Shown here one piece after another: positions 5,866 through 56,527 of a stretch of 64,000 nucleotides of DNA. How positions within the stretch are numbered: the stretch's first letter is position 1; the number at the start of each line of letters is the position of its first letter. A program made the translations under genes and the position numbers. Source of the stretch: an uncultured Candidatus Saccharibacteria bacterium (lineage in GTDB: Bacteria > Patescibacteriota > Minisyncoccia > Phycocordibacterales > CAYSCM01); assembly GCA_964429815.1 (NCBI GenBank), contig CAYSCM010000001.1, positions 288,001-352,000 on the forward strand, given 5' to 3'. Below the pieces are notes generated by a model. It worked only from the letters and a program-made list of their open reading frames with translations. It was not told where the DNA came from and did no database searches.

Positions 5866-6027
5866 GTGAAATTTCCTGTTGCCCCTCCAACCTTACTTCA
5901 GAATTTTAAAATACAAAACTCGCCATCGAACGTGTTTTGTGTTCGGGTAGAGAGGGGTGGAATCATAGGGATATTCCTAACCACCTTAACGTGATATATT
6001 TCGATAAAGTTTTATCCTCCTGACTGA

Positions 6028-6564
6028 ATGCAAAAAAATATATACATAATCACTGGCGGACCTGGGTCTGGAAAAACGAGTATGATCGAGGAATTGAAGA
6101 AGCAGGGATTTAATGGCTCTGAAGAATTATCAAGGCAATTTATTAAGGAGCAGATACAGACGAAAGGGAGGTTACTTCCCTGGGTCGATAGATTGGGATA
6201 CAGCGAAGAGATGCTCAAAAGAAGAGTGAATCAGCATGAAAAAACCTCTTCCAGTGATTTATGGTTTTTTGATAGAGGAATTCCGGACTTAATTGCCTAT
6301 ATAAGAAAAGATAAGCTTAGCGTGCCCGAGATCTTCTATGTCTCAGCAAAAGAGTACAGGTACAATCACATTGTATTTTTAACACCTCCCTGGAAAGACA
6401 TATACGAAAACGATTCTGAACGAAGAGAAACTTTTGAGGAGGCAAAAAAAATTCACGCCGAGATTGTGAGCACCTACCTAAACCTAGGATATGAAACCCA
6501 TACTGTACCAAAGGGCACCATTGACGAGAGGGTCAGTTGGGTTTTGAATCTCGTCGGCGGCTGA
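6028..6564 (+). CDS. AAA_28 / NadR-like P-loop ATPase
   Basis: GGPGSGKTS Walker A near the N-terminus. Markedly AT-rich (~40% GC) relative to the genome. Confidence 0.55.
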   Translation: MQKNIYIITGGPGSGKTSMIEELKKQGFNGSEELSRQFIKEQIQTKGRLLPWVDRLGYSEEMLKRRVNQHEKTSSSDLWFFDRGIPDLIAYIRKDKLSVPEIFYVSAKEYRYNHIVFLTPPWKDIYENDSERRETFEEAKKIHAEIVSTYLNLGYETHTVPKGTIDERVSWVLNLVGG

Positions 6565-6782
6565 AGTTATCAAACTGAAAAATCCTCCAATACCCCAGGG
6601 CTTTTCGAGGTCTTTGTCAGTGAAACTCCTAGATGTAGAGATGGGCGGAATCGACATACCAAGTCACTAATTCGCTTCGCTCATAAGTGCTTGCCGGCCC
6701 TCCTCGCCGTCGCGAAGCGACATGGCTCCGGCCGTTCGATTCCGACGAATGTGCCACATTCTCCAACAAAGGCAAAAGAAAA

Positions 6783-6806
6783 AACCGGCACAAAGCCGGT
6801 TTTTCT
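6783..6806. terminator. bidirectional intrinsic terminator (serves tmRNA on the minus strand)
   Basis: ccggc-acaaa-gccgg stem with a T-tract on plus and T-rich on minus, directly 3' of the tmRNA end. Confidence 0.5.
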
Positions 6807-6813
6807 TTTGCTG

Positions 6814-7183
6814 TGGAGATGGGCGGAATCGAACCGCCGTGCAAAATAGGGTAAACGCGTTTCTACACTATCTAGTCTGCTCTCAATTCTCGAAGTTATG
6901 CGTTAAGAGCAAACAAAATCGCATACCTTCCAGTCTCGTAGTTTAGACGCGCTCGTGAGACACCAAATGCGTCGAGTCCGGAAATATTACACCCAAGAGT
7001 GCCTAACAGACTTCAACAAGCTGGATGGGATTAGGCCGTCGCGTAAGCGAAGGAGAAATCCTTTGCCGAAAAATACGGCGAAGTAACTGATTTTGCAGTT
7101 ATTTTTTCAGGATTTTAAGGAAGGTCCTGACTTCCACAGTGCACGTTAGTTTACGGATTATTTTGTCTAGGCCGATCATCCCC
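6814..7183 (-). ncRNA. ssrA: tmRNA (transfer-messenger RNA)
   Basis: 5' GGGGAUG pairs with 3' CAUCUCC, giving the G3:U70 wobble (tRNA-Ala identity). T-arm GGCGGUUCGAUUCCGCC. An AAAAAAUAACUGCAAAA pre-tag region resembling the E. coli resume region. Candidate tag ORF GCA...GCU UAC GCG ACG GCC UAA. Immediately downstream of smpB. Confidence 0.7.
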
Positions 7184-14816: not shown

Positions 14817-15596
14817 CTACGAAGTGGAGGCGTTTTTGGGTGCCGAGCGCTTCTCTACTTCGATCGCAAGAAAGAGGGGGATCTCTTTGCGGGAGTGATC
14901 TTCGGCAGCAGCCCGTGGGCCCTTCTCGCTCACCTTGTGCGAGATCCACTCTTCAAGGCGGGTGATGGAAAGCCCTGCCGAGCGAAGTGCCTTCGTATAG
15001 TCTTGCAGCGATCGGTGAAATGAATACGTAAATTCTTTCGCCGCCGAACCCGGGTGCGTATCTATTTCGATCTTCGCGGACGAAAGATAGGCATCGATTC
15101 TGCGATACTGCACCCTTTCTTTCTCATCGTAGCCCCAAGAACTTTTTTTCGGGATACGAAAGGCGGGATGATTAAGGACAAAGATAAAACGCCCCGTTTT
15201 CGTCAGCACGCGTGCCACCTCCGCAAACACCGGGGGAAGCGATTGCATATTTTGAAGCGCAAGGACGCACAGCACGACATCAAAAGAAGCGTCGGCGGCA
15301 AAGGAGAGGTGTGTCGCATTGGCAATATGAAAGGGTATCTTCGGTGAGGCAATTTTCGCCCGTTCGATAAGGGAAGGTGAGAGATCACACCCAACAATCG
15401 TTTTGGCGTTTTGTGCGAAAGCTCTCGTGAAGTATCCTTCTCCGCAAGCAAGATCAAGCACGGCCTCGGCCTTGTCGAGCTCGAGGATACGCTTGAGATT
15501 GGGGAGAAGCACTCTCGCGTGGTAGGTATCCCCCTCCTCGAGGTGTTGCCCGTACCAATCCGCGACATTTTCCCATGACGTGTCTTTCTTTTTCAT
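14817..15596 (-). CDS. class I SAM-dependent methyltransferase
   Basis: LDLACGEGYF motif I. ATGA overlap with the upstream disrupted kinase gene. Confidence 0.7.
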   Translation of the reverse strand: MKKKDTSWENVADWYGQHLEEGDTYHARVLLPNLKRILELDKAEAVLDLACGEGYFTRAFAQNAKTIVGCDLSPSLIERAKIASPKIPFHIANATHLSFAADASFDVVLCVLALQNMQSLPPVFAEVARVLTKTGRFIFVLNHPAFRIPKKSSWGYDEKERVQYRRIDAYLSSAKIEIDTHPGSAAKEFTYSFHRSLQDYTKALRSAGLSITRLEEWISHKVSEKGPRAAAEDHSRKEIPLFLAIEVEKRSAPKNASTS

Positions 15597-16183
15597 CTCT
15601 TTTCCAAAACAGCGATCACACGCTCGTACAGAGTGTCGATGGGGGAGGCTTTTATGAGTAAGAAATTGTTGGATTCTGCTTGTTTTTTGATCTTATTTCC
15701 GTATGTGTAGTGATACAGGGCATCTTTCTTTGCTCTCTCTCCTTCCTTATTACCACGCTTGCGCAGAGTCTGTCTCTCATAAATGGGCTCGACTTCGTCG
15801 TAAAGGAAGAGTGCCTTTATTTGGATCTAGTCTCTCGTGGCCAATAGATCGGGAATAATCCCATCACCTTCGAAAATTACCTCTTCATTGCATCGTATAT
15901 GTTTCGAAAGGAGTGTATTGAGAGAAGGCCATACTGCGTGGCCAACATCGAGTAATTTCTGAGCGAAAACCTCGGCAGAAAAATCTTCAAGATAATTTTG
16001 GTGATCGACAAACGTAAACAATGCTGGAGACCTTGAGCTGTCGGCCACTTCGCGGATCGCAATTCGTATGTCGTCTATCTCGGTCAGGGGAATCTGATAT
16101 TTATTTGCAATCTGTCGAGCCAAATACGATTTTCCTACGCCGGAACTTCCGCCAATAAGGAGGACTGTCCATTCTTTCTCCAT
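15593..16183 (-). pseudogene. P-loop kinase/NTPase gene interrupted by an in-frame TAG (amber) at 15827-15829
   Basis: LLIGGSSGVGKS Walker A. The reading frame continues in the same frame through the TAG for 77 more codons, to a TGA overlapping the methyltransferase ATG. Low GC. Confidence 0.5.
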
Positions 16184-16211
16184 CCTTCAATTATAAGGCG
16201 AGCTACTCTGG

Positions 16212-16276
16212 ATTCAGAAAACCGTCGTCAATCCCCATAAGGGTATTTTAGCGCTTCTAAAGACGACTTGTTGAGG
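16212..16276 (-). repeat. attC-like repeat copy A (degenerate R' end)
   Basis: In gene orientation CCTCAAC lies directly after the VOC stop codon, followed by conserved gggattgac... Shares >70% identity with copies B and C. Confidence 0.4.
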
Positions 16277-16287
16277 CTCTCAGGTCG

Positions 16288-16656
16288 CTAAGATTTATGC
16301 ACCGCTTCAAGATTGTGGCCGTTGGGGTCAATTACAAACGCAGCAAAATATCCAGGCTCATAATCGCGCAGGCCGGGAGCACCATTATCAGTCGCGCCAC
16401 GGGTAAGTGCAATTTTGTAAAATTCCTCAACGGCCTGCCTGCTCTTTGCGGTCAGGGCTATGTGTACGGATTTTGAAAGGGGCATGTCCACTCCGGCCTG
16501 GCTTATTTCGAGCATGTCGTGAGGGTTAGACCCAAAGCCAACTACGACACCTTCAATTTCAAATACGACATTGTACCCGAGTGCCCCAAGTACCGCTTCG
16601 TAAAACAAGCGGTTCTTTGCGAAATCTGTTACTTTAATTTGTACGTGGTCAAACAT
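16288..16656 (-). CDS. VOC/glyoxalase-family protein (cassette)
   Basis: Glyoxalase fold pattern. Low GC. Confidence 0.55.
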   Translation of the reverse strand: MFDHVQIKVTDFAKNRLFYEAVLGALGYNVVFEIEGVVVGFGSNPHDMLEISQAGVDMPLSKSVHIALTAKSRQAVEEFYKIALTRGATDNGAPGLRDYEPGYFAAFVIDPNGHNLEAVHKS

Positions 16657-16726
16657 ACTTACATTATAGTCGAGTGTTGATACCCGGATCTGTCCGATAC
16701 AAAAGTCTTCGGGCGGGCCGCTCGGG

Positions 16727-16792
16727 ATTCAAACTTTTAAGCTCAATAAACACGAGGGTATTTTTGGCCCATCTTGGTGCAATCTGTTGAGG
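16727..16792 (-). repeat. attC-like repeat copy B
   Basis: In gene orientation: CCTCAAC ... aaaaGTTTGAATcccgagcggcccg. Confidence 0.4.
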
Positions 16793-16863
16793 CCTTCGAG
16801 TCGCAAAGGTTTCTTTGGGATTATCCGAATTGAACTCCGGGAAGATCCTTTCGACGTAACCTG

Positions 16864-17553
16864 CTACCATTGTCCGAGATCAAGAACCGGCTTGCCGATA
16901 ACCGCGTTTTGTGCGACGGTCCAAGTGGAGGTTGCGGACGGATTGTCCTTGGAAAGATACCACTCGCCGCTCTGAATTGTCGTTCCGTTTATTATTTCAC
17001 CAGGAACGCCAATAACCCGAGCGATGATATTGTGCGAACTTTGGCCAGAACCAACTCTGGCAAGAATGATATCGCCTTTTTGTACGGAGCGATCATATTT
17101 TTCAATTATGAGATATTCATTTGCCGGATAAGTTGGCGCCATCGAATCCCCGCTCATCAGAAAAGGTTCGAGGAGAAAACCCCGAAAAGCTACAATGATT
17201 ATAATCGCAAACAACCAGAACGCGACAGAGCCGGTGAGGAGGGCAGGTAAAAATTTCCAGAAGGTGACGGCAAAATATTTCCGATACAGAAAATACGCAA
17301 CAGCGTAGAAAACTAAAGTTATCGAGAGCTTAAAGATGCCTGCTCCAAGCCAGAAAACCAGCACGCCCACGATGGCTGACGCGACTGTGGAAAGAAAAAG
17401 AATTATTGCAACGCGCCCAAAAGTGCTTGTTTTGATCCCATACAATTTATTTGCCAAATTCACAAACTCGATGCTACCAATGAAAAACAGTCCGCCAACA
17501 ATCAGTATGGGCACAAGAATAGTAAGACTCATGTTAAGATTATACCTTTCCAA
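16864..17553 (-). CDS. lepB: signal peptidase I with extra N-terminal TM region (cassette)
   Basis: SGDSMAPT serine box and RVIGVPGE box. Confidence 0.7.
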   Translation of the reverse strand: MERYNLNMSLTILVPILIVGGLFFIGSIEFVNLANKLYGIKTSTFGRVAIILFLSTVASAIVGVLVFWLGAGIFKLSITLVFYAVAYFLYRKYFAVTFWKFLPALLTGSVAFWLFAIIIIVAFRGFLLEPFLMSGDSMAPTYPANEYLIIEKYDRSVQKGDIILARVGSGQSSHNIIARVIGVPGEIINGTTIQSGEWYLSKDNPSATSTWTVAQNAVIGKPVLDLGQW

Positions 17554-17721
17554 AAAGGTTACTTACATTGTTCACTCAAACCCTCAGGTCTACCGATAAA
17601 AAGTTGTCAATGCGGAGAGGGCCGGTCTAGAACTCGGCCTCGTCAAGCAGTGTAAGGGTTTCTTGGCAACTTGGCGACCACGCGTTTTCAGGGAGAACGG
17701 TCGGGAGCTGTTGAATGCGAC

Positions 17722-18294
17722 CTAATGTAATCTCTTACCAGATCGCATCATCGCGAGAAGTACTTCCATACGGCGAGCTCTCGTTTCTAGCCTTTTAGCC
17801 GTTTGGAGTCTCCACGCAATCGCGTAGGTATTCACACGATTGAGTGACTTGAAAAAATCGTAAGCCTTCGGATCTTTTTTTACCGCTTCAACAAAATCCG
17901 CGGGGACCTCCGCCGTACTCCCGACGTCATAGGCTCGATCCCATCGGCCATCCTTTTTTGCCGCGTCTATCTCCCTCTTCCCAGCAGCGGTCATGCGGCC
18001 TTCTTTAAGTAGACGAAGGACGTGCTCGCGATTCCGCTTCGACCACATGCTTTGTGGACGGCGTGGCGTAAATTTTTGCAAGAATGAACCGGCATCATAG
18101 GCCTTCTTTTGCCCGTCAATCCATCCATAACAAAGCGCTTCATCGAGGGCTTCATCATAGGTTGCGGATTTGTGGCCGGAACCTTTTTTGTAAATACGGA
18201 GCCAAACACCTTCCGAACGCGAGTAATGCTTTGAAAGCCACGAACGCCAACTCGCAGCCATAGCAAACAATTTGATCGGAATTTTTTTCGCCAT
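17722..18294 (-). CDS. YdeI/OmpD-associated family protein (cassette)
   Basis: GxSxG-free basic protein matching the YdeI/OmdA bacteriocin-protection family pattern. Confidence 0.45.
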   Translation of the reverse strand: MAKKIPIKLFAMAASWRSWLSKHYSRSEGVWLRIYKKGSGHKSATYDEALDEALCYGWIDGQKKAYDAGSFLQKFTPRRPQSMWSKRNREHVLRLLKEGRMTAAGKREIDAAKKDGRWDRAYDVGSTAEVPADFVEAVKKDPKAYDFFKSLNRVNTYAIAWRLQTAKRLETRARRMEVLLAMMRSGKRLH

Positions 18295-18322
18295 GAGCCA
18301 AACGTTTTGCGGGCCACTCGGG

Positions 18323-18387
18323 ATTCAACTTTTAGAGGTCAATCCCCGCAAGAGTATTTTGGTGGATTCAATGCCGACTTGTTGAGG
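18323..18387 (-). repeat. attC-like repeat copy C
   Basis: In gene orientation, 65 nt from CCTCAAC (R''-like) to GTTGAAT (perfect GTTRRRY), with imperfect internal inverted repeats. Lies between the hydrolase stop and the YdeI start. Confidence 0.45.
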
Positions 18388-18436
18388 CACTCGGGTCGGA
18401 GTCTATAAAGCAGTGGGCTTACTAAATTGCCTGAGG

Positions 18437-19051
18437 CTACCTGGCATCTGTTTTGATCATTTTAACGATTTCCGGGAATCGCTCGATGTTGAAATGTCCG
18501 TTTTTGCTCTTGAAGATAGTTATTTGCGCAGTTGGAAGTTTTGCTCGATATTTTTCTGCGTGCGCGACTGGGACAACATCGTCATCTTTCGAGAACAGAA
18601 GGTAAAGATTCTTACAGTTCTGCTGAATCATCGAAAGGTTTTTCTTAAGCTCAAAGCCTCCGGCTAGCCTGTCGCCTGGCATGTCGTCGTCAAACGGAGG
18701 ACATACGAGATATATCGAAATTGCTTTCTTGGACAGTTTGTTTTCAGAAAGATATTTAGCGAGGAAAATGCCACCGAGAGAGCCACCAATGAGAATGAAA
18801 GGTCGTCTAAGGAGCAGGAGATAATTCTCGAACATAATCTTCCAATCACGATACTGCGAATTGTCCTGCAGCGGCATTCGTGGAATCGTCACAACAAACT
18901 TGGCGCCCAGATCTTTTTGGAGATTATCGCTGTTCCAGCGGATCCGTTTACCCAGCGTTACCTTCTTAGTTTTAAGATATTTGACATATTCCTTGTCGGA
19001 CACAAAAGTATTGCCACCATGGATATAGAGGACATCTATTTTCCTTTTCAT
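18437..19051 (-). CDS. alpha/beta hydrolase (RBBP9/YdeN-like serine hydrolase) (cassette)
   Basis: GGSLGG nucleophile elbow. Low GC. Confidence 0.55.
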   Translation of the reverse strand: MKRKIDVLYIHGGNTFVSDKEYVKYLKTKKVTLGKRIRWNSDNLQKDLGAKFVVTIPRMPLQDNSQYRDWKIMFENYLLLLRRPFILIGGSLGGIFLAKYLSENKLSKKAISIYLVCPPFDDDMPGDRLAGGFELKKNLSMIQQNCKNLYLLFSKDDDVVPVAHAEKYRAKLPTAQITIFKSKNGHFNIERFPEIVKMIKTDAR

Positions 19052-19117
19052 ATTAGAACTATAGCAATAATGAGGGCCAAGATCTTCGGGTCTGTCCGAT
19101 AATAAAGTTTTCGGGCG

Positions 19118-19257
19118 GAGAGGGTGGGATTAGGTCACAAGTATTTTTCTGCTGAAAAATCTCGCGACCCCGCCTCGCGCCAGCGCTGCGGCTTTCGAAT
19201 CCCATCCCTACCGCAATGATGAATCGCGCAGACGCCTCCCCGGGCGTCTTTGCGAAT
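19118..19257. repeat. tRNA-Ser 3'-end fragment (ggagagggtgggatt) plus R1-family repeat head and palindromes
   Basis: 15-nt direct copy of the tRNA-Ser 3' end, 126 bp from the real 3' end. A ttcgaatccc T-loop-like fragment. Palindrome ccgcaatgatgaatcgcg...cgcgaatcattgcgg. Confidence 0.35.
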
Positions 19258-19262
19258 CATTG

Positions 19263-19350
19263 CGGAGAGGGTGGGATTTGAACCCACGGTCCAGTTTCCC
19301 GGACTCCGCATTTCGAGTGCGGTGCCTTCGACCAACTCAGCCACCTCTCC
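19263..19350 (-). tRNA. tRNA-Ser (anticodon CGA)
   Basis: Acceptor ggagagg/cctctcc, long variable arm, anticodon loop cuCGAaa, T-loop ttcaaat. Confidence 0.8.
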
Positions 19351-37240: not shown

Positions 37241-38080
37241 CTAGAAGTTTATATTTATGACGGTTCCGGCTACGTCTGAAATGTGGAAATAGGGTGGAGG
37301 TGATAAGGATTCAGAATTGAAAACGAAAGGATGTGAGGTTGTGGAAATACCGTCGCTTGCCTTGAAGGAGATCTGAAAAGTCGGGGTGTAGAATACTACA
37401 GTCGACATAAGATCACTTAATTTCGTTACCATCGGAACTAGATAATCATATATGCCGTCATGACCAACCGTTGCACTAATGGCTGTCATGTTTGGCGTCA
37501 ACGAAAAAGTAGAGGTTGCATTAGCAAAATGGTCATACGCGACGACCTGTATTGAACGGAAATCAATTGGAAAGGTAGTGTTCAAGGTAACCGAGCTGTT
37601 AGAAAGAACTGCGTAAATTACCTTTTTAGGAAGCACAGGAATTTGAGGACTTGCTACCGCTACTACAAGAGGCGGTGGGCCTTGTGGTGTAGGTGGTGGT
37701 GCCGGCTGGAACTCCTTTTTCTGCTGAGCAATTAACATATTCATCTTATTCTCTAAGTCCTGTATTGCGGCCGTTGTCGTGGGGGCGCTTTGACCGTCAG
37801 CACTTGTCGAAACCTGACTGATATGTTTCCGCGTAAGGGGACCGACATAACCCGACGCAGGAGAAATGCCCTCTTTAATTTGGAACGCGATTACAGCCCT
37901 CTTTGTCATAGGTCCGAAGAATGAAGTAATCGGTCCGGAATATACATTTTTTAATGTAAGAAATTGCTGAAGAGCAGCAACATCAGCACCTCTGATTCCT
38001 AGTGACAGGTTTCTATTGAAAGTAGCGTCAGCAAAAGCTACTAGAGGCAAAACTGCGAATACCAAAAGAAGTTTCTTCAT
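37241..38080 (-). CDS. secreted peptidoglycan-binding-domain protein
   Basis: Signal peptide MKKLLLVFAVLPLVAFA. PG_binding_1-like GIRGADVAALQQFL...GPMTKRAVIAFQ. Pro-rich linker. Low GC. Confidence 0.5.
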   Translation of the reverse strand: MKKLLLVFAVLPLVAFADATFNRNLSLGIRGADVAALQQFLTLKNVYSGPITSFFGPMTKRAVIAFQIKEGISPASGYVGPLTRKHISQVSTSADGQSAPTTTAAIQDLENKMNMLIAQQKKEFQPAPPPTPQGPPPLVVAVASPQIPVLPKKVIYAVLSNSSVTLNTTFPIDFRSIQVVAYDHFANATSTFSLTPNMTAISATVGHDGIYDYLVPMVTKLSDLMSTVVFYTPTFQISFKASDGISTTSHPFVFNSESLSPPPYFHISDVAGTVININF

Positions 38081-38159
38081 TGAATACAATATGCAACAAC
38101 TGGCGCCGTTAAGCAAAATTACTCGAATCCGTCAAAGTGTGAGATTTTGTTCATTGCGG

Positions 38160-38348
38160 GGTAATTGGTCACGGATATTTCGCTCGTCGTCGCTCGCGAA
38201 ATTCCGCGACCCCGGCTCGGCATCGAAATCCGCTGATTTCGATATGCCTGCGCCTTGCAATTCCCGCCGCGAGGCAAGTAGTTGCCTCGCTCTCTCCACA
38301 AACCAGAGAACAGAAAAGACACGCAAAAGCGTGTCTTTTCTGTTCTTG
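38160..38348. repeat. R1 repeat family copy 2 (hairpin 38307-38346), abutting the tRNA-Met 3' end
   Basis: Same head motif and hairpin as copy 1. Ends 1-2 nt from the tRNA 3' end. Confidence 0.5.
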
Positions 38349-38420
38349 TTGCGGGGGCGGGAATTGCACCCGCGACCTCAAGGTTATGAGCCTTGCGAGC
38401 TACTGCTGCTCCACCCCGCT
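38349..38420 (-). tRNA. tRNA-Met (anticodon CAT), initiator-like
   Basis: Near-identical architecture to E. coli tRNA-fMet (aGCGGGGUGGAGCAGC...CUCAUAAC...CCCCGCA A), with a 1:72 A-A mismatch. Confidence 0.75.
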
Positions 38421-39261: not shown

Positions 39262-39525
39262 AACTGAATTGTAACAAAAATGGACTATCTTTCGGATAGT
39301 CATTTTTCAACCAATCTACGATTATTTGCGCGGTGGACGGTAGCGTGGACCTGGTCAGGCATTCCATAATCGCCGTCGCGATTATGGCCGCACGACCCTG
39401 CCTCGCGGTTTCGCGTGCTGGCGAAACATCGCTCCGGCCTTCAAGTCCCGATGCCGCTTCGCGGCTTCTAAAATCCAAAACCCGCCGGAATAAATCCCGA
39501 CGGGTTTTGACTTAGCGCGGCGGAC

Positions 39526-39600
39526 GGGACTTGAACCCGCAACCTCCCGCGTGACAGGCGGGTGCTCTAACCAAGTTGAGCTACCACCGCATCTTTACGA
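39526..39600 (-). tRNA. tRNA-Asp (anticodon GTC)
   Basis: Acceptor gcggtgg/ccgccgc (one G-U), anticodon loop cuGUCac, T-loop ttcaagt. Confidence 0.8.
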
Positions 39601-48263: not shown

Positions 48264-48334
48264 TGCGGGATCGTCTAATGGTAGGACACCAGGTTCTGGC
48301 CCTGGTAATCTAGGTTCGAGCCCTAGTCCCGCAG
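48264..48334 (+). tRNA. tRNA-Gln (anticodon CTG)
   Basis: U1:A72 acceptor (tgcggga/tcccgca), 3-bp D-stem, anticodon loop uuCUGgc. Confidence 0.75.
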
Positions 48335-48450
48335 CAGCAGTCAGCGCAGTATCGTGCGAGACCGGAGAGCCTCAGAACTCAAAGGTCCGCCGATTCGCTG
48401 AATGTACTATTCCGTTATTGCATATCCGGTGAGTCCGGTATTCAGAACAA

Positions 48451-48477
48451 AAATCGCCCCTTACAGGGCGATTTTTG
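48451..48477. terminator. bidirectional intrinsic terminator
   Basis: aaatcgcccc-ttac-agggcgattt with flanking A and T runs. Confidence 0.55.
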
Positions 48478-48493
48478 TTGGCCGACTATTTCT

Positions 48494-49825
48494 CTAGAGA
48501 TATCTTTTTGCTTTTAATGTGATTCTGGTTTTAAGAGTTCCTAGCAGTTCACGCTTCTCAAGAACATCGCCTTCTGTCAGGACATGTCTCACATAATGCC
48601 GTGCATCGAAGTGTTCCTCGACACGCTGCGGTGATTGCTGCCCCAAGAACATTCTTTGGAATTTCTTAGCTCGGGCGCGTTCCTCCTCAAATTTCTTGCG
48701 AATTATCGGCTCATTGAGTTCTAATTTATCTATCTGCTCTATGAGTTGTCGGACAAGCTCCTCTTCGCGAATGTAACCGGCGGCTCTACAGGCGCGATCC
48801 TTTGAGCGATTGCATCCGTAGTACAGGTACGTGGCAGTCGTGCCCGTGCTTTTGATGAGTTTGTGCTTCTCCTCGGCGCAGACACCCGAGCCGCACGCTC
48901 CGCAGGTGATGAGTCGTGTGAAGGCGAACTCCTTGGACTCACCGCGCACAATTCTGTCGCGCTTGAGTTGTGCCAGCACCTTTTCATACAGTTCACGGGT
49001 GATTATCGGTTCGTGTTTGCCCGTGTACCATTTGCCGCTCCCGATTGGGTACTCAAACTGTCCGAAGTAGAACGGCGTCTGCAGGATTTTGTAAATGTTA
49101 CTCAAAGTCAGAGGCTTATTGCTCGTTGCGCTTCGGAAATTCATATCGAACTTGAGCCAGTGATAGAGCTTTTGCCCAGACCATTTCTCGTATGCGACCT
49201 TCTCGAACATCTGCCGAACGACTGGTGCACGGTCGGGGTCGACCATGACGTACCCCTTCCGGTCGACACGTTTCTCGTTGAGGTAGCCGGTCGGCGCAGG
49301 CGCAGGCCATAAGCCCATCTCACAGCGCATGCGGAGGCCTCGCTTCACATTCACACTTTTGTTGTCGTTCTCAAGCTTTGCCTGACTGCACAAAATCATG
49401 AGAAGAAATTTCTCACTCGGTGAATTTGTGAACTTCTGGCCGTATGTTCGGATCTCGACGAGAAGTTTTTGGTCCATCAAGTCCACCAGACTCCCGAGGT
49501 CGCCTGCGTTGCGGCTCAGGCGGTCTGGGTTCCAGGTGAGTACACCGTTGAACCGTCCGGAGCGGATGTCTTTGAGAATCTCATTGAACACAGGCCGCTG
49601 GCCGGAGTCCTTCGCAGAGTGTGCTTCACGCCGGATGTCCACGATCTCGATGCCATCACGCTCCGCGATCTCGAGCATTTCCTTCACCTGAGAGTCGATG
49701 GACAGTGCCTGTTTTTCGCTCGTGTCCTCAGTCGACTTTCGAGCGTAGAGTACATACTTAACTGGTACTGCTAATTGCGGCACGAAAGTGCCTGGAGCTC
49801 TAGCCCCTCGGGTTATGGTTTCCAT
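48494..49825 (-). CDS. large serine recombinase (resolvase-domain integrase)
   Basis: N-terminal resolvase domain YARKSTED..S, recombinase domain, C-terminal CxxC...C zinc ribbon and coiled coil. Confidence 0.8.
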   Translation of the reverse strand: METITRGARAPGTFVPQLAVPVKYVLYARKSTEDTSEKQALSIDSQVKEMLEIAERDGIEIVDIRREAHSAKDSGQRPVFNEILKDIRSGRFNGVLTWNPDRLSRNAGDLGSLVDLMDQKLLVEIRTYGQKFTNSPSEKFLLMILCSQAKLENDNKSVNVKRGLRMRCEMGLWPAPAPTGYLNEKRVDRKGYVMVDPDRAPVVRQMFEKVAYEKWSGQKLYHWLKFDMNFRSATSNKPLTLSNIYKILQTPFYFGQFEYPIGSGKWYTGKHEPIITRELYEKVLAQLKRDRIVRGESKEFAFTRLITCGACGSGVCAEEKHKLIKSTGTTATYLYYGCNRSKDRACRAAGYIREEELVRQLIEQIDKLELNEPIIRKKFEEERARAKKFQRMFLGQQSPQRVEEHFDARHYVRHVLTEGDVLEKRELLGTLKTRITLKAKRYL

Positions 49826-49917
49826 ATACCCAAAGGAATGACGCCTCCCGCCAGGAAGTCCAACGTCTAAGTTGGTAACCTTCAGAGCCGATTTGACTTT
49901 GATTCATTTGATGCATT

Positions 49918-50229
49918 ATGATGGTAGGTATGGAAGATTCAGTTTCAGGGTACAAAGCAGTTAAACGGCTCGCGGTAGAGCGGCCTGATTGGCTCCCTAT
50001 CATTCGAGAGTGCTTGAATTTGCGGAAAGAGATTCACAACACTGACTTTGCTGGCGCATGGGTATATCAGCGTCTTCAAGAGAAGGGCGGACCGAAATTT
50101 TCAAATCTGCGTCTTCTTGTTAGCTTTGGCATCTTGAAGAAAGAGGCGACCTCACGCGGTGGTCGACGCGCGTACTACTCCTTCGTCGATCCTGAGGGTG
50201 TCGAGAAAGCATTAAGCGAGCTTTCATAA
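49918..50229 (+). CDS. hypothetical protein
   Basis: ORF. Preceded by the agttggtaacct motif. Confidence 0.3.
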   Translation: MMVGMEDSVSGYKAVKRLAVERPDWLPIIRECLNLRKEIHNTDFAGAWVYQRLQEKGGPKFSNLRLLVSFGILKKEATSRGGRRAYYSFVDPEGVEKALSELS

Positions 50230-50233
50230 TTTT

Positions 50234-51331
50234 ATGAAAGTCAAAGTTGCGAACACAAGCCTACACGGCGCAAAGAAAGCGAAAAAAGACGAGTTCTACA
50301 CTCAACTCGTTGATATTGAAAAAGAGCTGAAGCACTACAAAAACCAGTTTCGCGGCAAAGTCGTGTACTGCAACTGTGACGACCCGTTCGAAAGCAACTT
50401 TTTCAAATACTTTGCCGCAAATTTCAACGCGCTTGAGTTGAAAAAACTTATCACGACGAGCTTCGTCAAATCGCCTATCGCTGGTGGGCAGTTGCCGCTT
50501 TTTGAAATGCAGGGGCTAAAACCCGACGGCAAAGAACCGTTTAAAATTGCAATACGGGAGGTCCCAGACGCGGACGGCGACGGTGCAATCAATCTTGATG
50601 ATGTGAAGTATCTACTGCAGCACGACAAGAACACAGCAACCCCGCTGAAAGGAAACGGCGATTTCCGCAGCGATGAATGCATGGAATTTCTTAAAGAGGC
50701 AGACATCGTCGTGACAAACCCGCCATTCTCACTTTTTCGTGAATACATTTCGCAACTGGTAGAACACAACAAAAAATTCCTGATCATCGGCAACATCAAC
50801 GCCGTCACCTACAAAGAAGTGTTCCCTTTGATTAAGGCAAACAAACTATGGCTCGGTGCAAGTATCCATAGTGGGGACCGCGAGTTCCGAGTGCCGGAGG
50901 ACTACCCGCTAAACGCAGCTGGCTACCGAGTTGACAGCGACGGAAACAAATATATTCGCGTCAAAGGTGTGCGCTGGTTTACCAATCTCGATTACGACGA
51001 ACGCCACGACAGCGTTGTGCTTTACAAAAAGTATTCGCCAAAAGAATATCCTAAATACGATAACTACGACGCCATAAATGTGAACAAAACTGTTGATATT
51101 CCCATGGACTATAAAGGCGCTATCGGTGTACCAATTACTTTCCTTGATAAATACAGCCCCGACCAATTTACAATTCTAGGCGCACTAATCTCTGGTCCAC
51201 TTGGACAAGAGCTAGGAGCGACCAAAACAAAACAGATCAGGCCAAACGGAAAAACGACAATGGAATACGGGCCTATTATCAAGACGAAGGGTTATTACGG
51301 AAGGATTGTCATTAAAAATAAAACGCTATGA
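50234..51331 (+). CDS. N6-adenine DNA methyltransferase (EcoRI-methylase-like/phage Dam-like)
   Basis: DEFYTQ N-terminal motif and VTNPPFS (motif IV NPPF). Confidence 0.55.
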   Translation: MKVKVANTSLHGAKKAKKDEFYTQLVDIEKELKHYKNQFRGKVVYCNCDDPFESNFFKYFAANFNALELKKLITTSFVKSPIAGGQLPLFEMQGLKPDGKEPFKIAIREVPDADGDGAINLDDVKYLLQHDKNTATPLKGNGDFRSDECMEFLKEADIVVTNPPFSLFREYISQLVEHNKKFLIIGNINAVTYKEVFPLIKANKLWLGASIHSGDREFRVPEDYPLNAAGYRVDSDGNKYIRVKGVRWFTNLDYDERHDSVVLYKKYSPKEYPKYDNYDAINVNKTVDIPMDYKGAIGVPITFLDKYSPDQFTILGALISGPLGQELGATKTKQIRPNGKTTMEYGPIIKTKGYYGRIVIKNKTL

Positions 51332-52419
51332 AAATCGAGCTACAAAAAATAAAAATACGCGATGTCGTGAATGGCTACAAAGACAGCGCCGAGGAAGGCG
51401 TCGTAGCGTATGGTGGTAAGCTCGATATTCGTCCAAAGTACCAGCGTGAGTTCATCTACAAAGACAAACAGCGCGATGCGGTGCTTGATACGGTCAAGAA
51501 AGGATTTCCACTCAACGTTATGTATTGGATGGTGCGGGAGGACGGCGGTTATGAAGTGCTCGACGGCCAACAGCGCACCATCAGCATCGGCCAGTATGTC
51601 AATGGTGATTTCTCGCTCGGCGACCGCTATTTCCACAATCTCATCAAGGAGGAGCAAGAGCAGATTTTGAGCTACGAGCTGATGATTTATTTCTGTGAGG
51701 GCACAGATAAGGAACGGCTCGACTGGTTTAGGACAATCAACATCGCGGGCGAAAAGTTAACAGACCAAGAGCTTCGCAATGCTGTATACACTGGCCCTTG
51801 GCTTTCAGACGCAAAACTCAAATTCAGCAAGACGGGCTGTGCTGCCTATCACTTGGCAAACGACGGTGGGGCGCTCGTCAGTGGCTCGCCGATCCGACAG
51901 GAGTATTTGGAAACTGCACTCTCATGGATAAACAAGGGTGAGGTTGCGGCCTACATGGCGAAGCATCAGCATGACAAAGACGCTGAGAAACTATGGACTT
52001 ACTTCCAAGACGTAATTGGGTGGGCGCGAAAGACGTTCCCCAACTACCGCAAGGAAATGGCGCATGTGAACTGGGGTGAACTATACAATGAGTTCAAAGA
52101 CAAGAAACTGAATGCCGCCAAACTCGAAACCGAAGTCAAGAAACTAATGCAGGACGAGGATGTAACGAAAAAGTCCGGCATCTATCCGTATGTTTTGACC
52201 GGCAACGAGCGCGAACTTTCTATCCGCGCGTTCACCGACAAAATGAAGCGCGAGGCATACGAGCGACAAGACGGCGTCTGTCCGTTTTGCAAAAAGAAGT
52301 TTGACGTTTCAGAAATGGAAGCCGACCACATCACGCCATGGCATGAGGGCGGAAAAACAACAGCTGAAAACTGCCAGATGCTCTGCAAGCAAGATAACCG
52401 GACAAAGTCCGGGAAATGA
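51328..52419 (+). CDS. DUF262 (ParB-like) N-terminal domain fused to a C-terminal HNH endonuclease
   Basis: DGQQR motif of DUF262. C-terminal CPFC...DHITPWHEGG...NCQMLC...N HNH. ATGA overlap with the MTase. Confidence 0.6.
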   Translation: MKIELQKIKIRDVVNGYKDSAEEGVVAYGGKLDIRPKYQREFIYKDKQRDAVLDTVKKGFPLNVMYWMVREDGGYEVLDGQQRTISIGQYVNGDFSLGDRYFHNLIKEEQEQILSYELMIYFCEGTDKERLDWFRTINIAGEKLTDQELRNAVYTGPWLSDAKLKFSKTGCAAYHLANDGGALVSGSPIRQEYLETALSWINKGEVAAYMAKHQHDKDAEKLWTYFQDVIGWARKTFPNYRKEMAHVNWGELYNEFKDKKLNAAKLETEVKKLMQDEDVTKKSGIYPYVLTGNERELSIRAFTDKMKREAYERQDGVCPFCKKKFDVSEMEADHITPWHEGGKTTAENCQMLCKQDNRTKSGK

Positions 52420-52476
52420 ATCGAGAAGTCATCGAAAAAAACATGGCGACGAAATGACACAGACCATAAATATCCC

Positions 52477-53184
52477 ATGATAGAGCTACCATCTTGGCTT
52501 AAGATTGGAAAAATAATCGAAAAACTCGATTTCTCCAATTGGTTTAGTCGCCAGTTAAGAGATGATCAGCGTAAGTATGTGGGTGGGGACTACATCGAGA
52601 AAGTGGAAATACATAACCACGCTCCTTCAGGCACCATCGAGGAAGATCCGCTGGCCAGAGGACTGTATACGCTTGGTTTGGAAAGACGGCAGGTAGACAC
52701 GTACGGGGGCTTCTTCAATAGTTTTTATCTAGAAGTAGAGAAGAGACGGGAGCGTCAAATAACGAGAAGTGCTCATACCATGCTATTGGGTGCGGTTTTT
52801 GCCGTCGGGACAAAGTATCAAAACAATCCTGAGTGGAAAGAACACTGCTCATCGTCATTACGTGAAATATTCCACGAGTGGAGTGGCCCAGATGAATTCA
52901 GGCGGGACCTTGTTTCTGTCTACAACCACAGCAACGCAAAAGGAGGGCTTGCAACAGACGAGGAGGATAGTCTAACGTCATTTTGGCTTCTGTATCGATA
53001 TTTCTCTAGTATAGATCATCATCAAGCATCCGGAATACTGCACGCTCTACGCGCATTTCTTAGAGATAGCTCGCTTAAAATCGAGGACTGCGTGAATGAC
53101 GATATTTTTATTGAGAGAGCAAAAGATTTCTTCTCACATTTATCTCGTATTTCTGAAATCGCAAAGAAACGTACTGAACCATGA
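52477..53184 (+). CDS. hypothetical protein (235 aa), first gene of an unknown two-gene module
   Basis: ORF. ATGA-coupled to the next gene. Confidence 0.3.
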   Translation: MIELPSWLKIGKIIEKLDFSNWFSRQLRDDQRKYVGGDYIEKVEIHNHAPSGTIEEDPLARGLYTLGLERRQVDTYGGFFNSFYLEVEKRRERQITRSAHTMLLGAVFAVGTKYQNNPEWKEHCSSSLREIFHEWSGPDEFRRDLVSVYNHSNAKGGLATDEEDSLTSFWLLYRYFSSIDHHQASGILHALRAFLRDSSLKIEDCVNDDIFIERAKDFFSHLSRISEIAKKRTEP

Positions 53185-56177
53185 ACCAGATCGAATTACA
53201 CAACAGGATAGATGAGTACATTGCTCACGGCCCAGGGAAGGCTGCATGGACGGCTGTAAAAAAAATAACTGAGATTCACCTCGACGTGAAGAAGTATTTT
53301 TATACTAGAGCCGATGAAAAGTGGTTTGACTTGGTACGCGGAGATATTCTGAATGTGGCGAAGACAAAAGCTAGTGATCCCACGAAATACTCATATCAAA
53401 CGCCTGAGCTTGATTATTTGGCTCGGGTGGCTGAGATAATTCCACAGAAGGTCACTAAACTCATTTTAGACACTTCCATATCTAAAGAGAACTTCAATCC
53501 AGAAGTGGTTGATCGTTTTCTTTGGATTTCGAGCAAATTGCCCGCCGACCAACTTAAACGAGTAGTCGTGAAAATCCGCGATGATCAATGGATTCAACTT
53601 ATGGCGCCTTTCAATAGGTGGGTTTTTGAATATCAAAAGATGTTCGAGACGCTTGCAGTTGCCAAGGACCAGGACAGCATACTTATCCTTGCGGAAGCGG
53701 TTTTGCGGACACGTTCAAAGGATGAGCTGGCAAAGATTAACAATGGGATATCGACGGACAATCCCTTCTTCCTTTCAGACCTCAGCGAAACAGACATTTT
53801 CAGTCTTCTTGCCTCTTCTGATGATAAACATCTAGATGCTGCTCTTCGGGTCGCAACTAATGCACTCGCGGGCGTTATCAGGACTGGCGATCGAGAAGAT
53901 AACGTTTTTGAAATCGGTGAGATTTTTCACCTCTTTGATGTTGACTTTTTTTCTCTTGAATTGGGCAAGGGCCGACATTATTCACATAGAGATGAGGTCA
54001 GAGAACTGGCAGCCGTTGTCAAAACACTCGTGAATCGCTCTATTGGTAAGAGCTGCAACGATTCAAAAGAGACTCGCCGGATCTACGAACACATAGAACG
54101 TTTGCCGGATAGTCGATCCATGTGGCGACTGCGGCTCTATGTCTGGAGTCTGTGTCCGAAGGTGTTCAAGGACGAATTACAGACTGCATTTTTCAAGGGC
54201 CTAGAGTCGCGAGAAATGTTATGGCCAATTACAGGCGGTGCGGAATACGATCACGCTCTTAAAAGGTGTTTTGATGTTGTTCTGTCCGAGGAGGACCGGA
54301 AGGCATATATTCAACGTGCCTTTGAGATACTTGACGTGAATGAAGAGCACCCATACGGCTACGGTATATTTGCCAGTATCCAAAGGCATCTGTCAGAACC
54401 GCAGAAGCAGCGGGTGGAAGCCCTCTACAAGATGCCGCTTGATCCAAATTATACGCCTGAGCCTAGCGTAGGTCATTCGTATGCCGGCACAATAGTTTCG
54501 CAGTCACCCAAGGAGGCAGATGATGTCTGGGGAAAGCCGGTTCCGGAGATTGTACAAGCTCTAGAAACCCGCTTGACGCCGGAGCAACTACAAAAGATAG
54601 ACGGTAGGAAAGATTTTCTAAAACCGGTAAACGCAGAGGGGGTGGCGGATAAAATGCGGTCACAAATGAAAGAACGCACGAGTGAATATACCGCCAACGC
54701 GACTTTGTTTTTCGATAGAAAACTAATGGATCCACACTACACCTACTCCTTCTTCCGTGGCGTGGATGAGATTATTCGCTTGCATCGAGAAAAAGTGTCA
54801 GAAATAAACTGGCAGCAGATTATTGCGCTTGGTGTCGCAATTACGAAAGAAGGACAACGAGAGTCTTTTGATTTCACTAAGCGAGAAAGGGAGCACTTCG
54901 ATGCCTGGCTCGCAGGATGGATTGGTGTACACGACGGCCTCGGAGATGTTTTGCAGGATTATCTCCGAAATGATAACGGAATCACTGAGGAGTCCTTCAA
55001 TAAGAACCGGGAGGATCTTTTCAAGATTATTTGCTACCTACTCACCATACCGGATCCGGTTCCTAAGGACGAGCAACCTGAAACGGCTGGCATGACTACC
55101 ACGCCGCCCGGCGGAGAGAAATTAGTGAGCGATCCTTTCGCGATAGCCATTAACTCGGTTCGCGGCCGAGCATATCAAGCGTTCGTAATGTTTATGGAGT
55201 GGGATGGGCGTAAGTATGCGAAGGACGCAAAAGTGAAGCTATCTCCAGATGTATTGCAAGAGTACAAGGATCTTTTAGCGCGTGAAAATACCGGCGCAAT
55301 TTTCTTCATGTACGGACACTATCTACCGTTTTTCTACTTCCGCGATGTTAAGGAAGTCCGAAAGCTCCTCCCGCAAATATTTACGAGCGACAGTAAAAAG
55401 GTTCATCTGTATCTCGCGGCGTGGGAGGGTTATCTGACTCGTAGTCTCTATCGAGAGATGTTTGTCCAGCTACAGGGTGAATACGAACGAGCAATCAAAA
55501 ATAATCCTGACTCTTATCCGAAAAGAAATTACCGTGCAGACCTTGACGAAGCATTAGCAACTCATATGGCATTGGCGTACATCCACTTCGAGGATTTCAC
55601 GCTTGATTCAAGTCTGTTCAAACTTTTTTGGAGCACTCCAAACCAAAAGAGGTATCAAGAGTTTGTATCATTCATCGGACGCTATGTGATCTCGAAAGAT
55701 CATGCAAAGGAGAATCTCGCTGAAAATCCTGAGATCAAACTTTCTAAGCTTATTGACTTCTGGGATTGGACGCTTGAATACGTTAATGACCCGGATGTAT
55801 TTGCCGAATATGGTTTCTGGATGGATACAACCGGTGGTTTATATGACGATGTAACGGCACTTGCCCGAAGGATTCAGAAAACACTCAAAAAATCTAAAGG
55901 TAAAGTCGACTGGGAGATTAAGCTAATGGATTCGCTCCCGACGTTGGCGGCAGCAGTCCCCAAGGACACACTGGAGATTTTACGACTTTATCTCAAACCA
56001 CTTGATGTGAGCCCACGCAGTCGACACTTCATGCATGTCGACGCCGACCTTGTAAATATTTTCAGGACGCTGCATAAGAATCCAGAGACTCAAGACGAGA
56101 CTTATAAGTTGATCGACGAACTCCTGCCGTTGGGGAATGGGGTGTATTGGAAGTTGAAGGAGGCCTTAACGGAGTAG
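53181..56177 (+). CDS. large hypothetical protein (998 aa), no recognisable catalytic motifs
   Basis: Long uninterrupted ORF, predicted helical/repeat-rich. No Walker A or nuclease motifs seen by eye. Confidence 0.4.
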   Translation: MNQIELHNRIDEYIAHGPGKAAWTAVKKITEIHLDVKKYFYTRADEKWFDLVRGDILNVAKTKASDPTKYSYQTPELDYLARVAEIIPQKVTKLILDTSISKENFNPEVVDRFLWISSKLPADQLKRVVVKIRDDQWIQLMAPFNRWVFEYQKMFETLAVAKDQDSILILAEAVLRTRSKDELAKINNGISTDNPFFLSDLSETDIFSLLASSDDKHLDAALRVATNALAGVIRTGDREDNVFEIGEIFHLFDVDFFSLELGKGRHYSHRDEVRELAAVVKTLVNRSIGKSCNDSKETRRIYEHIERLPDSRSMWRLRLYVWSLCPKVFKDELQTAFFKGLESREMLWPITGGAEYDHALKRCFDVVLSEEDRKAYIQRAFEILDVNEEHPYGYGIFASIQRHLSEPQKQRVEALYKMPLDPNYTPEPSVGHSYAGTIVSQSPKEADDVWGKPVPEIVQALETRLTPEQLQKIDGRKDFLKPVNAEGVADKMRSQMKERTSEYTANATLFFDRKLMDPHYTYSFFRGVDEIIRLHREKVSEINWQQIIALGVAITKEGQRESFDFTKREREHFDAWLAGWIGVHDGLGDVLQDYLRNDNGITEESFNKNREDLFKIICYLLTIPDPVPKDEQPETAGMTTTPPGGEKLVSDPFAIAINSVRGRAYQAFVMFMEWDGRKYAKDAKVKLSPDVLQEYKDLLARENTGAIFFMYGHYLPFFYFRDVKEVRKLLPQIFTSDSKKVHLYLAAWEGYLTRSLYREMFVQLQGEYERAIKNNPDSYPKRNYRADLDEALATHMALAYIHFEDFTLDSSLFKLFWSTPNQKRYQEFVSFIGRYVISKDHAKENLAENPEIKLSKLIDFWDWTLEYVNDPDVFAEYGFWMDTTGGLYDDVTALARRIQKTLKKSKGKVDWEIKLMDSLPTLAAAVPKDTLEILRLYLKPLDVSPRSRHFMHVDADLVNIFRTLHKNPETQDETYKLIDELLPLGNGVYWKLKEALTE

Positions 56178-56178
56178 C

Positions 56179-56397
56179 TTAGAGGAAATACTCAACATTC
56201 TTTCCGTATAGCTTCGCCAGCTTGTTGAGCCATATTGCTTCTACCCGCAATTCTCCCAGCTCAACTTTCGACACCCACGACTGAGAGCATTTGAGTTTGT
56301 CAGCGACCTCGGCTTGTGTCAGCCCCGCATCAAGGCGGGCTTTCCTCAGTCGCTTCACGAATACAGCCCGCTCGTCAGTATGAATGGACTTTCTCAT
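56179..56397 (-). CDS. XRE-family HTH transcriptional regulator
   Basis: LTQAEVADKLKCSQSWVSKVE helix-turn-helix. Confidence 0.7.
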   Translation of the reverse strand: MRKSIHTDERAVFVKRLRKARLDAGLTQAEVADKLKCSQSWVSKVELGELRVEAIWLNKLAKLYGKNVEYFL

Positions 56398-56527
56398 ACC
56401 TATAAGCGTCTATTCCGTTATGGGATATTCCAAAATGGAATATTCAATGTTAGGCTACGAATGTCCGACAAAGGCAAGAGTTGGTAACCTCCTTCGCAAG
56501 CCTCCGAATCTAAGTTAGGAACACCAC

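Follow-up and report, generated by a model that had tools for sequence, protein, structure and literature searches.

The window considered here, a 64,000-nucleotide stretch of an uncultured Candidatus Saccharibacteria bacterium (contig CAYSCM010000001.1, forward-strand positions 288,001 to 352,000), carries five functionally unrelated genes (Pfam) in a row on its minus strand, 3' of a tRNA-Ser(CGA) gene (Table 1). This serine tRNA-anchored row of foreign single genes in a bacterium of the candidate phyla radiation (CPR) can be taken as a largely real gene-capture array, and it is not an integron. The GC content of the block is 0.46-0.48 against 0.55-0.58 in its flanks, and GC at third codon positions (GC3) is 0.43-0.51 in the five genes against 0.59-0.71 in the neighbouring ones, in agreement with a first-pass annotation made from the sequence alone, which had described five unrelated minus-strand genes in a low-GC block. 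The frame of the fifth gene, encoding a P-loop NTPase/kinase-like protein, is interrupted by an in-frame TAG (15829-15827) before running on to 15593, which probably makes it a pseudogene. At its end the gene runs into the start (ATGA) of a methyltransferase gene, and since the latter is host-like in composition the array ends at about 15593. Homologues of the hydrolase (60-82% identity in other CPR genomes) were found in ordinary chromosomal contexts, without junction elements or tRNAs, in all six cases checked (73-82% identity). The YdeI protein has widespread homologues (~70% identity), of which two were checked for context, one in Paceibacterota and the other on an unassigned JGI metagenome contig, and both contexts were likewise ordinary. 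Neither junction elements nor tRNAs were found beside hydrolase or YdeI homologues at ten checked loci in other CPR genomes, the named contigs among them belonging to Kaiserbacteria and Paceibacterota. Because these homologues sit in ordinary contexts, the cassette genes of the window look captured.

The array is headed by an exact copy, at 19131-19115 (E0), of the final 17 nt of tRNA-Ser, AATCCCACCCTCTCCGC (19278-19262), where shuffled sequence gives an expectation of 0. An exact 17-nt repeat of the tRNA-Ser 3' end is a classic signature of integration into a tRNA gene. The repeat is followed directly by a tail, CCGAAAACTTTATTATCGGACAGACC, which recurs after the junction E3 further along the array; the tRNA-Ser 3'-end fragment joined to a repeat tail that had been noticed at the proximal end is therefore genuine. 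Between the tRNA gene and E0 lies the M module, with the consensus GGATTCGAAAGCCG.AG ... CGAGGCGGGGTCGCGA ... AAAATAC ... GTGACC, in which GTGACC stands just ahead of the E0 repeat. The module contains a terminator-like hairpin with a T-run at 19179-19163 (CGAGGCGGGGTCGCGA) and an inverted copy of the tRNA-Ser 3' end at 19214-19194 (18/21 positions). With the tRNA end it forms a long imperfect palindrome, in which the 5' arm comprises the tRNA from T-loop to 3' end and its trailer, the 3' arm is the inverted copy and the apex is a GC-rich hairpin. As single-stranded DNA (ssDNA) this palindrome folds at -34.4 kcal/mol (z -6.66), with none of 200 shuffles folding as well. A hidden Markov model (HMM) built from the M copies of two other contigs (L007 and L041, described below) alone detects the M module of the window with an E value of 4.3e-12. 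As a separate observation, two of the three public assemblies break within the T-arm-to-3'-end segment of tRNA-Ser (19263-19291), with branching of the assembly graph (L048 and L049 stop at 19263, L001 starts at 19291). These breaks could represent alternative junctions in the population, or merely shared tRNA sequence.

The remaining junctions, E1 to E4, each follow one of the first four genes. E1, E3 and E4 are built around a conserved unit of ~100 nt, the X element, and a tail of 25-35 nt is added at some junctions. In gene orientation the X element reads GACCYGAG.G-CCTCAAC-(~27 nt)-AAAATACYCTT..GGGGATTGAC and continues after GGGGATTGAC with (~12 nt)-TTGAATCC-CGAGYGG-CCCGC. An nhmmer search over the 64-kb window returned three copies, E1, E3 and E4, and none outside the array; X element and tail are both absent elsewhere in the 64 kb, and the chance expectation from shuffles is 0. 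The first-pass annotation had placed an element of ~65 nt after each of the first four genes. This holds for E1, E3 and E4, but E2 is divergent and escapes the HMM, and the proposed length describes only the stretch from CCTCAAC (18387-18381) to GTTGAAT (18329-18323) in E1, which is 65 nt long, whereas the conserved unit measures ~100 nt plus tail. The start of the element had been put directly after the stop codon, yet CCTCAAC actually lies 11 nt (E4), ~50 nt (E1) and ~65 nt (E3) beyond it, and E2 has ATTCAAC in its place. Likewise, of the two endings that had been described, GTTGAAT is found in E1 only and GTTTGAAT in E3 only, while E4 ends in TTCTGAAT and E2 in GTTCTAGAC.

Table 1. Features of the array and of related loci in the window (positions in the window; GC3, GC at third codon positions; SAM, S-adenosylmethionine; tmRNA, transfer-messenger RNA).
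Feature	Position	Strand	Evidence or remarks
tRNA-Ser(CGA), array anchor	19262-19350	minus	ARAGORN; Rfam tRNA, 60.7 bits
Long imperfect palindrome	19194-19278	minus	ssDNA fold
M module, gene-less, tRNA to first core copy, 130 nt	19132-19261	minus	homologues in L007 and L041
E0 core, exact 17-nt direct repeat of tRNA-Ser 3' end	19115-19131	minus	AATCCCACCCTCTCCGC
Tail after E0 (proposed P' arm)	19081-19114	minus	CCGAAAACTTTATTATCGGACAGACCCGAAGATC
Cassette gene 1, Ser_hydrolase-family alpha/beta hydrolase	18437-19051	minus	Pfam; GC3 0.50
E1, X-type junction	18301-18410	minus	nhmmer, alignments; closest copy in L040 (~88%)
Cassette gene 2, YdeI/OmdA-family protein	17722-18294	minus	Pfam; GC3 0.49
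E2, divergent junction	17554-17721	minus	missed by X-type HMM
Cassette gene 3, S26 signal-peptidase-like, N-terminal membrane region	16864-17532	minus	Pfam; GC3 0.48
E3, X-type element, core and tail	16681-16812 (nhmmer 16704-16812)	minus	nhmmer
Cassette gene 4, VOC/glyoxalase-family protein	16288-16656	minus	Pfam; GC3 0.48
E4, X-type element, no tail	16190-16299	minus	nhmmer
Cassette gene 5, P-loop NTPase/kinase-like, probable pseudogene	15593-16183 (Pfam part 15827-16183)	minus	GC3 0.43-0.51
SAM methyltransferase, distal border of array	14817-15596		host-like composition, GC3 0.59
tmRNA	6813-7183	minus	last 20 nt repeated at 6654-6635 (19/20), 158 nt downstream
tRNA-Met	38348-38420		terminator, then inverted T-loop copy 38268-38256 (13/13), M-like scaffold
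PG_binding_1 gene	37241-38116		GC3 0.40; inside tRNA-Met 72-nt repeat
tRNA-Asp	39515-39590		inverted 3'-end copy 39462-39440 (19/23), direct copy 39351-39328 (19/24)
Large serine recombinase	48494-49825		Resolvase, Recombinase and Zn_ribbon_recom domains; adjoins tRNA-Gln, 29 kb from array

Over its last 17-20 nt the X element looks like the 3' end of a tRNA and stays in register with the resident tRNA-Ser, reading as T-loop GAAT, T-stem 3' strand, acceptor 3' strand and then G and C. This core is AATCCCGAGTGGCCCGC in E1 (18325-18309), to be compared with AATCCCACCCTCTCCGC in the resident gene, AATCCCGAGCGGCCCGC in E3 (16729-16713, followed by the tail CCGAAGACTTTTGTATCGGACAGATCC at 16712-16686) and a degenerate AATCCAGAGTAGCTCGC in E4 (16214-16198). 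The sole invariant part of the cores is CCGC (CGC in E4). The divergent E2 carries a copy of a tRNA-Ser-like T-arm and acceptor (17633-17607, 27 nt at 78% identity with the resident tRNA), then a tail-like CAACTTTTTATCGGTAGACC, and then a TATAAT hexamer. The tail consensus, CCGAARACTTTnnTATCGGACAGACC, follows the cores of E0, E2 and E3, and the motif is also found after the first E-type element of L041 and after the intact tRNA-Ser of L040. Copies of the X element are ~70-88% identical to each other, those from other genomes included, and no two of them flank the same gene. E1 has more in common with its L040 counterpart (~88%) than with E3 and E4 (~78-80%), and the copies therefore did not originate by local duplication.

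In four of the five cassette genes a -10-like hexamer stands exactly 6 nt before the ATG: TATAGT at 19063-19058 for the hydrolase, and TATAAT at 17544-17539 for the S26 gene (ATG at 17532), at 16668-16663 on the VOC gene side of E3 and at 16195-16190 in E4. A hexamer at this distance precedes only 12 of 1886 ATGs in the background and 6 of ~57 other genes. Across the window, 9 of 62 genes have a TATAAT-like hexamer at exactly this distance from an ATG, three cassette genes among them, a count that omits the P-loop gene, the fourth hexamer-bearing cassette gene, as too short. This spacing suggests that the organism uses leaderless transcripts. Given the hexamers 6 nt ahead of the ATG, each cassette unit looks like its own transcription unit, probably a leaderless one.

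Homologues of the X element were sought with a relaxed pattern in a collection of genome contigs and with a strict 23-nt pattern in metagenomes. The former gave at least 36 matches, and among those listed all looked random except one in a Saccharibacteria contig (L007); the latter gave at least four, of which three are true homologues (L038, L040 and L041, with L038 the same sequence as L041). The match in L039, the same sequence as viral L042, was discarded as a chance match in a coding region. Scans of viral sequences with the tail and X patterns yielded chance matches only, and blastn of E1 against annotated phages and plasmids returned nothing. The X homologues thus lie in three other CPR contigs, in two of which, L040 and L041, they occur directly downstream of tRNA-Ser; the L007 contig, being short, ends before any tRNA gene. 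In L040, from a JGI metagenome, an intact tRNA-Ser(GGA) is followed by the tail, a Ham1 gene, a 192-aa gene and an X element with the core GAATCCCGGAGGGCCCGC, after which comes the terminator of a convergent dUTPase/deaminase gene. Judged from its order of parts, this is the layout expected of a single insertion, with attL (tRNA and tail), cargo and attR (X and core). In L041, tRNA-Ser(GGA) is followed by an M-like module, a core and tail, a 165-aa gene, X and tail, a small membrane gene, a further X and a response regulator. L007 carries two tandem M modules, a methyltransferase, X and glutamine synthetase. The flanked genes differ at all of these loci and from those of the window. The two M modules of L007 (1976-2284, minus strand) have no gene between them, and both close with GTGACC and a core resembling tRNA-Ser. 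The core of the first module folds with the beginning of the second into a hairpin (-23.7 kcal/mol, z -7.4).

A similar architecture is found at other RNA genes of the window. Inserts lie immediately 3' of tRNA-Ser in the window, L040 and L041, and of tmRNA, tRNA-Met and tRNA-Asp in the window, where direct repeats of the RNA 3' end match at 17/17 positions for Ser, 19/20 for tmRNA, 19/24 for Asp and 8/8 for Met, the last together with a 72-nt trailer repeat. At the tmRNA an inverted T-loop copy (6757-6730) folds with the tmRNA end into a hairpin (-41.7 kcal/mol, z -8.1). Next come one AAA_28 gene of low GC on the opposite strand (6028-6564, GC3 0.45) and a third, degenerate 3'-end copy at ~5958-5939 (15/20), so that 5939-7183 reads as a single-gene unit bounded by tmRNA-end repeats. 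At tRNA-Met, a direct repeat of 72 nt and 90% identity (38350-38281 and 37181-37110) surrounds a low-GC PG_binding_1 gene. At tRNA-Asp both 3'-end copies lie within 190 nt, followed by two small genes and then tRNA-Met. Sequence similarity of the M module beyond the Ser type is weak (leave-out E values of 0.01 for Asp and 0.9 for Met, no match for tmRNA), and the M-type modules at tmRNA, tRNA-Met and tRNA-Asp share mainly their architecture.

No recombinase accompanies the array. Neither IntI nor any other tyrosine recombinase was found in the window, as the HxLRH motif is absent from its six-frame translation and no open reading frame (ORF) scanned against Pfam matched Phage_integrase, which confirms the earlier statement that no intI is visible; nor do the five cassette genes include a recombinase (Pfam). 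In the absence of an element-encoded integrase the units would need to be mobilised in trans, as proposed for cis-mobilizable elements (CIMEs). The large serine recombinase listed in Table 1 was considered as the enzyme of the array and rejected, having unrelated boundary repeats and no link to it. It stands at the edge of an 8-kb low-GC island (48264-56428) with CTATTCCGTTAT repeats at 48407 and 56410 as candidate borders and a cargo comprising an EcoRI-like methylase, a GmrSD/HNH nuclease, a 235-aa protein and a 998-aa protein, and it appears to belong to this defence island. Elsewhere in the window, an ORF at 31-945 has a weak match to TraG-D_C, a domain of conjugative coupling proteins (E 2.9e-6).

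The favoured explanation, which is given about an even chance of being correct, is that integrase-less mini-elements were inserted successively at the tRNA-Ser 3' end by a recombinase encoded elsewhere and acting in trans. The tRNA-Ser 3' end would be a hotspot of site-specific recombination at which very small mobile units are added one by one, each consisting of one gene with its own promoter and ~150 nt of attachment-site DNA, and lacking a recombinase gene. Each junction would then be a complete attP-like site made up of a P arm, a core and a P' arm. The P arm would be either the X element, with its AAAATACYCTT and GGGGATTGAC motifs, or the M module; the core would mimic the tRNA-Ser from T-loop to 3' end, always ending in CCGC; and the tail would serve as the P' arm in several junctions. 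Strand exchange would most likely take place where the tRNA terminates, on CCGC or immediately behind it, and the tRNA would never be altered. The cores of E1, E3, E4 and L040 are unable to pair with the 5' half of the resident tRNA and were therefore never part of it, and for this reason the crossover is placed at or after the invariant CCGC, with X and core moving with the upstream gene and, as proposed, tail and promoter with the downstream gene. The explanation draws on the exact repeat of the tRNA end, the confinement of the junction repeats to the array within the 64 kb, their recurrence beside tRNA-Ser in other contigs, the lack of local duplication, the foreign composition and own promoters of the genes, the like architecture at other RNA genes of the window and published analogues. 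We infer the construction of the array by recombination, the position of the crossover and the supply of the recombinase in trans.

Several observations weigh against this explanation. In the cores of E1, E3 and E4 (AATCCCGAGYGGCCCGC) only about half of the positions agree with the resident tRNA, and these cores therefore cannot be displaced copies of its end, so that a crossover at CCGC and mimic cores carried by the elements themselves have to be assumed. There is no tail at E1, at E4 or at the second E-type element of L041. The direct-repeat match between the two ends of the X element lacks significance, as 945 of 5040 permutations were equal or better, and the idea of co-variation between the ends was dropped on this count. 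The only recombinase in the window is that of the defence island, with none linked to the array. No direct sign of mobility emerged: the three public assemblies carry an identical array, and no circular or empty-site forms were seen. Moreover, circles of 0.6-0.9 kb would be unusually small substrates for an integrase, and the junction family totals at least four loci.

A wider extension of the favoured explanation is put forward only tentatively, with a confidence well short of even. According to this proposal, CPR bacteria would possess a gene-capture platform equivalent to integrons in function but built differently, with tRNA and tmRNA 3' ends as its anchors, in which a conserved non-coding module copies the end of the RNA gene in inverted and direct orientation and forms with the tRNA end a strong imperfect hairpin resembling attC, and in which single promoter-bearing genes with attachment sites of ~150 nt would be inserted and exchanged by a recombinase in trans, possibly on folded DNA. 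As a matter of speculation, by analogy with integrons or the CTX phage, the inverted copy of the RNA-gene end and the strong hairpin could point to a folded-DNA substrate.

An alternative that does without a dedicated recombinase would have the X element, the M module, the tail and the tRNA act as homology anchors, with transformation and RecA swapping genes in, either by double crossover or by Campbell-type insertion of circles. Neisseria offers a parallel in its 'minimal mobile elements' and intergenic mosaic repeats. It would be in keeping with the lack of a recombinase linked to the array, with the conservation of the junctions in sequence and with the competence-type genes that adjoin the array, namely ComF, PilM/O and pilus genes of the T2SS-E/F type (in an attempt at synteny with sister genomes, the closest relatives of the flanking ComF proved only 41% identical). 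The repeat around one foreign gene at tRNA-Met also looks like the product of a homologous single crossover. However, with identities of ~70-88% and exact runs of at most 13 nt (E1 against L040), the copies seen are too dissimilar for efficient recombination between them by RecA, and such a process explains neither the copying of the RNA gene's own 3' end in both orientations in each module nor the exact coincidence of the repeat boundary with the tRNA 3' end. Homology-driven exchange is thus considered unlikely, if not negligibly so.

It is improbable that the X element and M module are instead small non-coding mobile repeats, similar to miniature inverted-repeat transposable elements (MITEs) or repetitive extragenic palindromic (REP) sequences, that home to sequences resembling tRNA 3' ends in an island acquired by other means. 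A short terminal inverted match, TCAAC/GTTGA, is invariant among the copies, direct repeats of 8-10 nt occur at both ends of X in E1 and L007, and M modules exist without genes and even in tandem, all of which would suit such repeats. Against this, they are not dispersed over the 64 kb, the match between their ends fails to reach significance across copies, as noted above, they are spaced one to one with gene boundaries, and no transposase is present.

Also improbable, and slightly more so, is that the junctions have no role in recombination and are boundary signals of transcription units (3'-end or insulator plus promoter) or decayed duplicates of tRNA-Ser. The -10-like hexamers after the junctions, the tRNA-3'-end-like cores, the T-arm-like hairpin kept by E2 and the terminator-like hairpin of the M module could all be read in this manner. 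However, a scan of the array for promoter and terminator consensus found nothing that coincides with the X elements, which match neither a terminator nor a sigma-70 promoter consensus. The notion of tRNA pseudogenes was abandoned because no cloverleaf is called in the junctions, ARAGORN and Rfam finding only the intact tRNA-Ser. Anchoring at the tRNA, the exact 17-nt repeat and the foreign composition of every flanked gene would also be left unexplained.

The first-pass annotation had likened the array to clusters of attC sites lacking integron-integrases (CALINs). On such a reading E1-E4 would be attC sites, and an IntI supplied from elsewhere in the genome would recombine them in single-stranded, folded form. 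Part of this logic survives: like CALINs, the locus is a compact array of unrelated foreign single genes in one orientation, with an element resembling a recombination site recurring behind each gene and no recombinase inside, here anchored at tRNA-Ser. The GTTGAAT of E1 does fit the GTTRRRY consensus, with a partly complementary CCTCAAC 65 nt upstream, but it belongs to the T-loop part of a core resembling a tRNA 3' end (GAATCC...CCGC). No RYYYAAC and GTTRRRY pair exists in any of E1-E4: the first base of CCTCAAC in E1 is not a purine, E3 combines CCTCAAC with GTTTGAA, which does not fit, E4 has CCTCAAC and TTCTGAAT, and in E2 ATTCAAC fits while GTTCTAG does not. When scored against 200 dinucleotide shuffles, the ssDNA folds of E1-E4 are no better than the controls on either strand (z of -0.9, -1.7, +1.3 and -0.4 on the top strand and of -1.4, -2.35, +1.5 and -0.06 on the bottom strand), which speaks against the attC geometry that had been proposed and is an outcome that the first-pass annotation had itself named as part of a refutation. 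RNAalifold gives six X copies a consensus of -2.65 kcal/mol, in which internal loops of 12-13 nt lie between a short inner hairpin (AATCCNCC/GGNGGATT) and an outer helix of 4 bp, TCAA/TTGA. Across the six sequences 91% of the cells are paired and three pairs are compensatory, so this small structure of X may be real, though it is no attC-type stem. An Rfam scan at E values up to 10 matched the tRNA alone. In one respect the earlier interpretation keeps some ground, in that the locus does contain strongly folding imperfect palindromes, but these involve the tRNA 3' end and the adjoining M module and not E1-E4.

Since its junctions are not attC sites the array is not a CALIN, a possibility that has become barely credible given folds no stronger than those of shuffled sequence, the lack of any element with both R boxes (R'' and R'), conservation across genomes of sequence rather than, as in attC sites, of structure, cores resembling a tRNA 3' end, anchoring at tRNA-Ser at three independent loci instead of at attI, genes with promoters of their own where integron cassettes are typically promoterless, and the absence of IntI within the window.

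Among known systems, the pdif modules of Acinetobacter plasmids likewise consist of small gene modules between short recombination sites, arranged in arrays and recombined by XerC/D encoded elsewhere. However, pdif sites are plasmid-borne 28-bp XerC/D sites in alternating orientation, are not derived from tRNAs and have no chromosomal tRNA anchor. Closer in position are tandem elements split by partial copies of tRNA or tmRNA, as in the tycheposons (10.1101/2020.12.28.424599) and the ssrA islands of Dehalococcoides (PMC3146451), and units without integrases have been described within such tandem, tRNA/tmRNA-anchored elements (10.1101/2020.12.28.424599; PMC3146451). Tycheposons of Prochlorococcus share with the present loci integration at tRNA/tmRNA 3' ends, successive insertions split by partial tRNA copies, the use of several different tRNAs per element family and degenerate remnants. 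They differ in being kilobase-scale elements with their own integrase and often replication genes, whereas the units described here measure 0.6-0.9 kb, carry a single gene without any integrase and have a long conserved junction. The Dehalococcoides ssrA islands, cis-mobilizable elements by accretion, lie in tandem downstream of tmRNA with 20-bp direct repeats of its 3' end, to which the 19/20 repeat and single-gene unit at the tmRNA of the window are alike, and some of their units carry no integration genes, their mobilisation being presumed to occur in cis or trans (PMC3146451). In contrast, these islands are 10-30 kb long and most have a serine-recombinase module, and neither a conserved 100-nt junction element nor a palindromic module has been described for them (PMC3146451). 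The locus is best read as a new, miniaturised variant of tRNA-anchored integrative arrays, and the integron label is wrong.

How the tiny genomes of CPR bacteria (Patescibacteria) gain accessory genes is poorly understood. If the favoured explanation is true, a miniaturised, tRNA-anchored cassette system would provide a compact route of gene gain through single promoter-bearing genes with no recombinase in cis, and would constitute a second, independent solution to the problem solved by integrons. Searchable markers are available in X element, M module and tail, with which the accessory gene pool could be mapped and the recombinase sought by co-occurrence.

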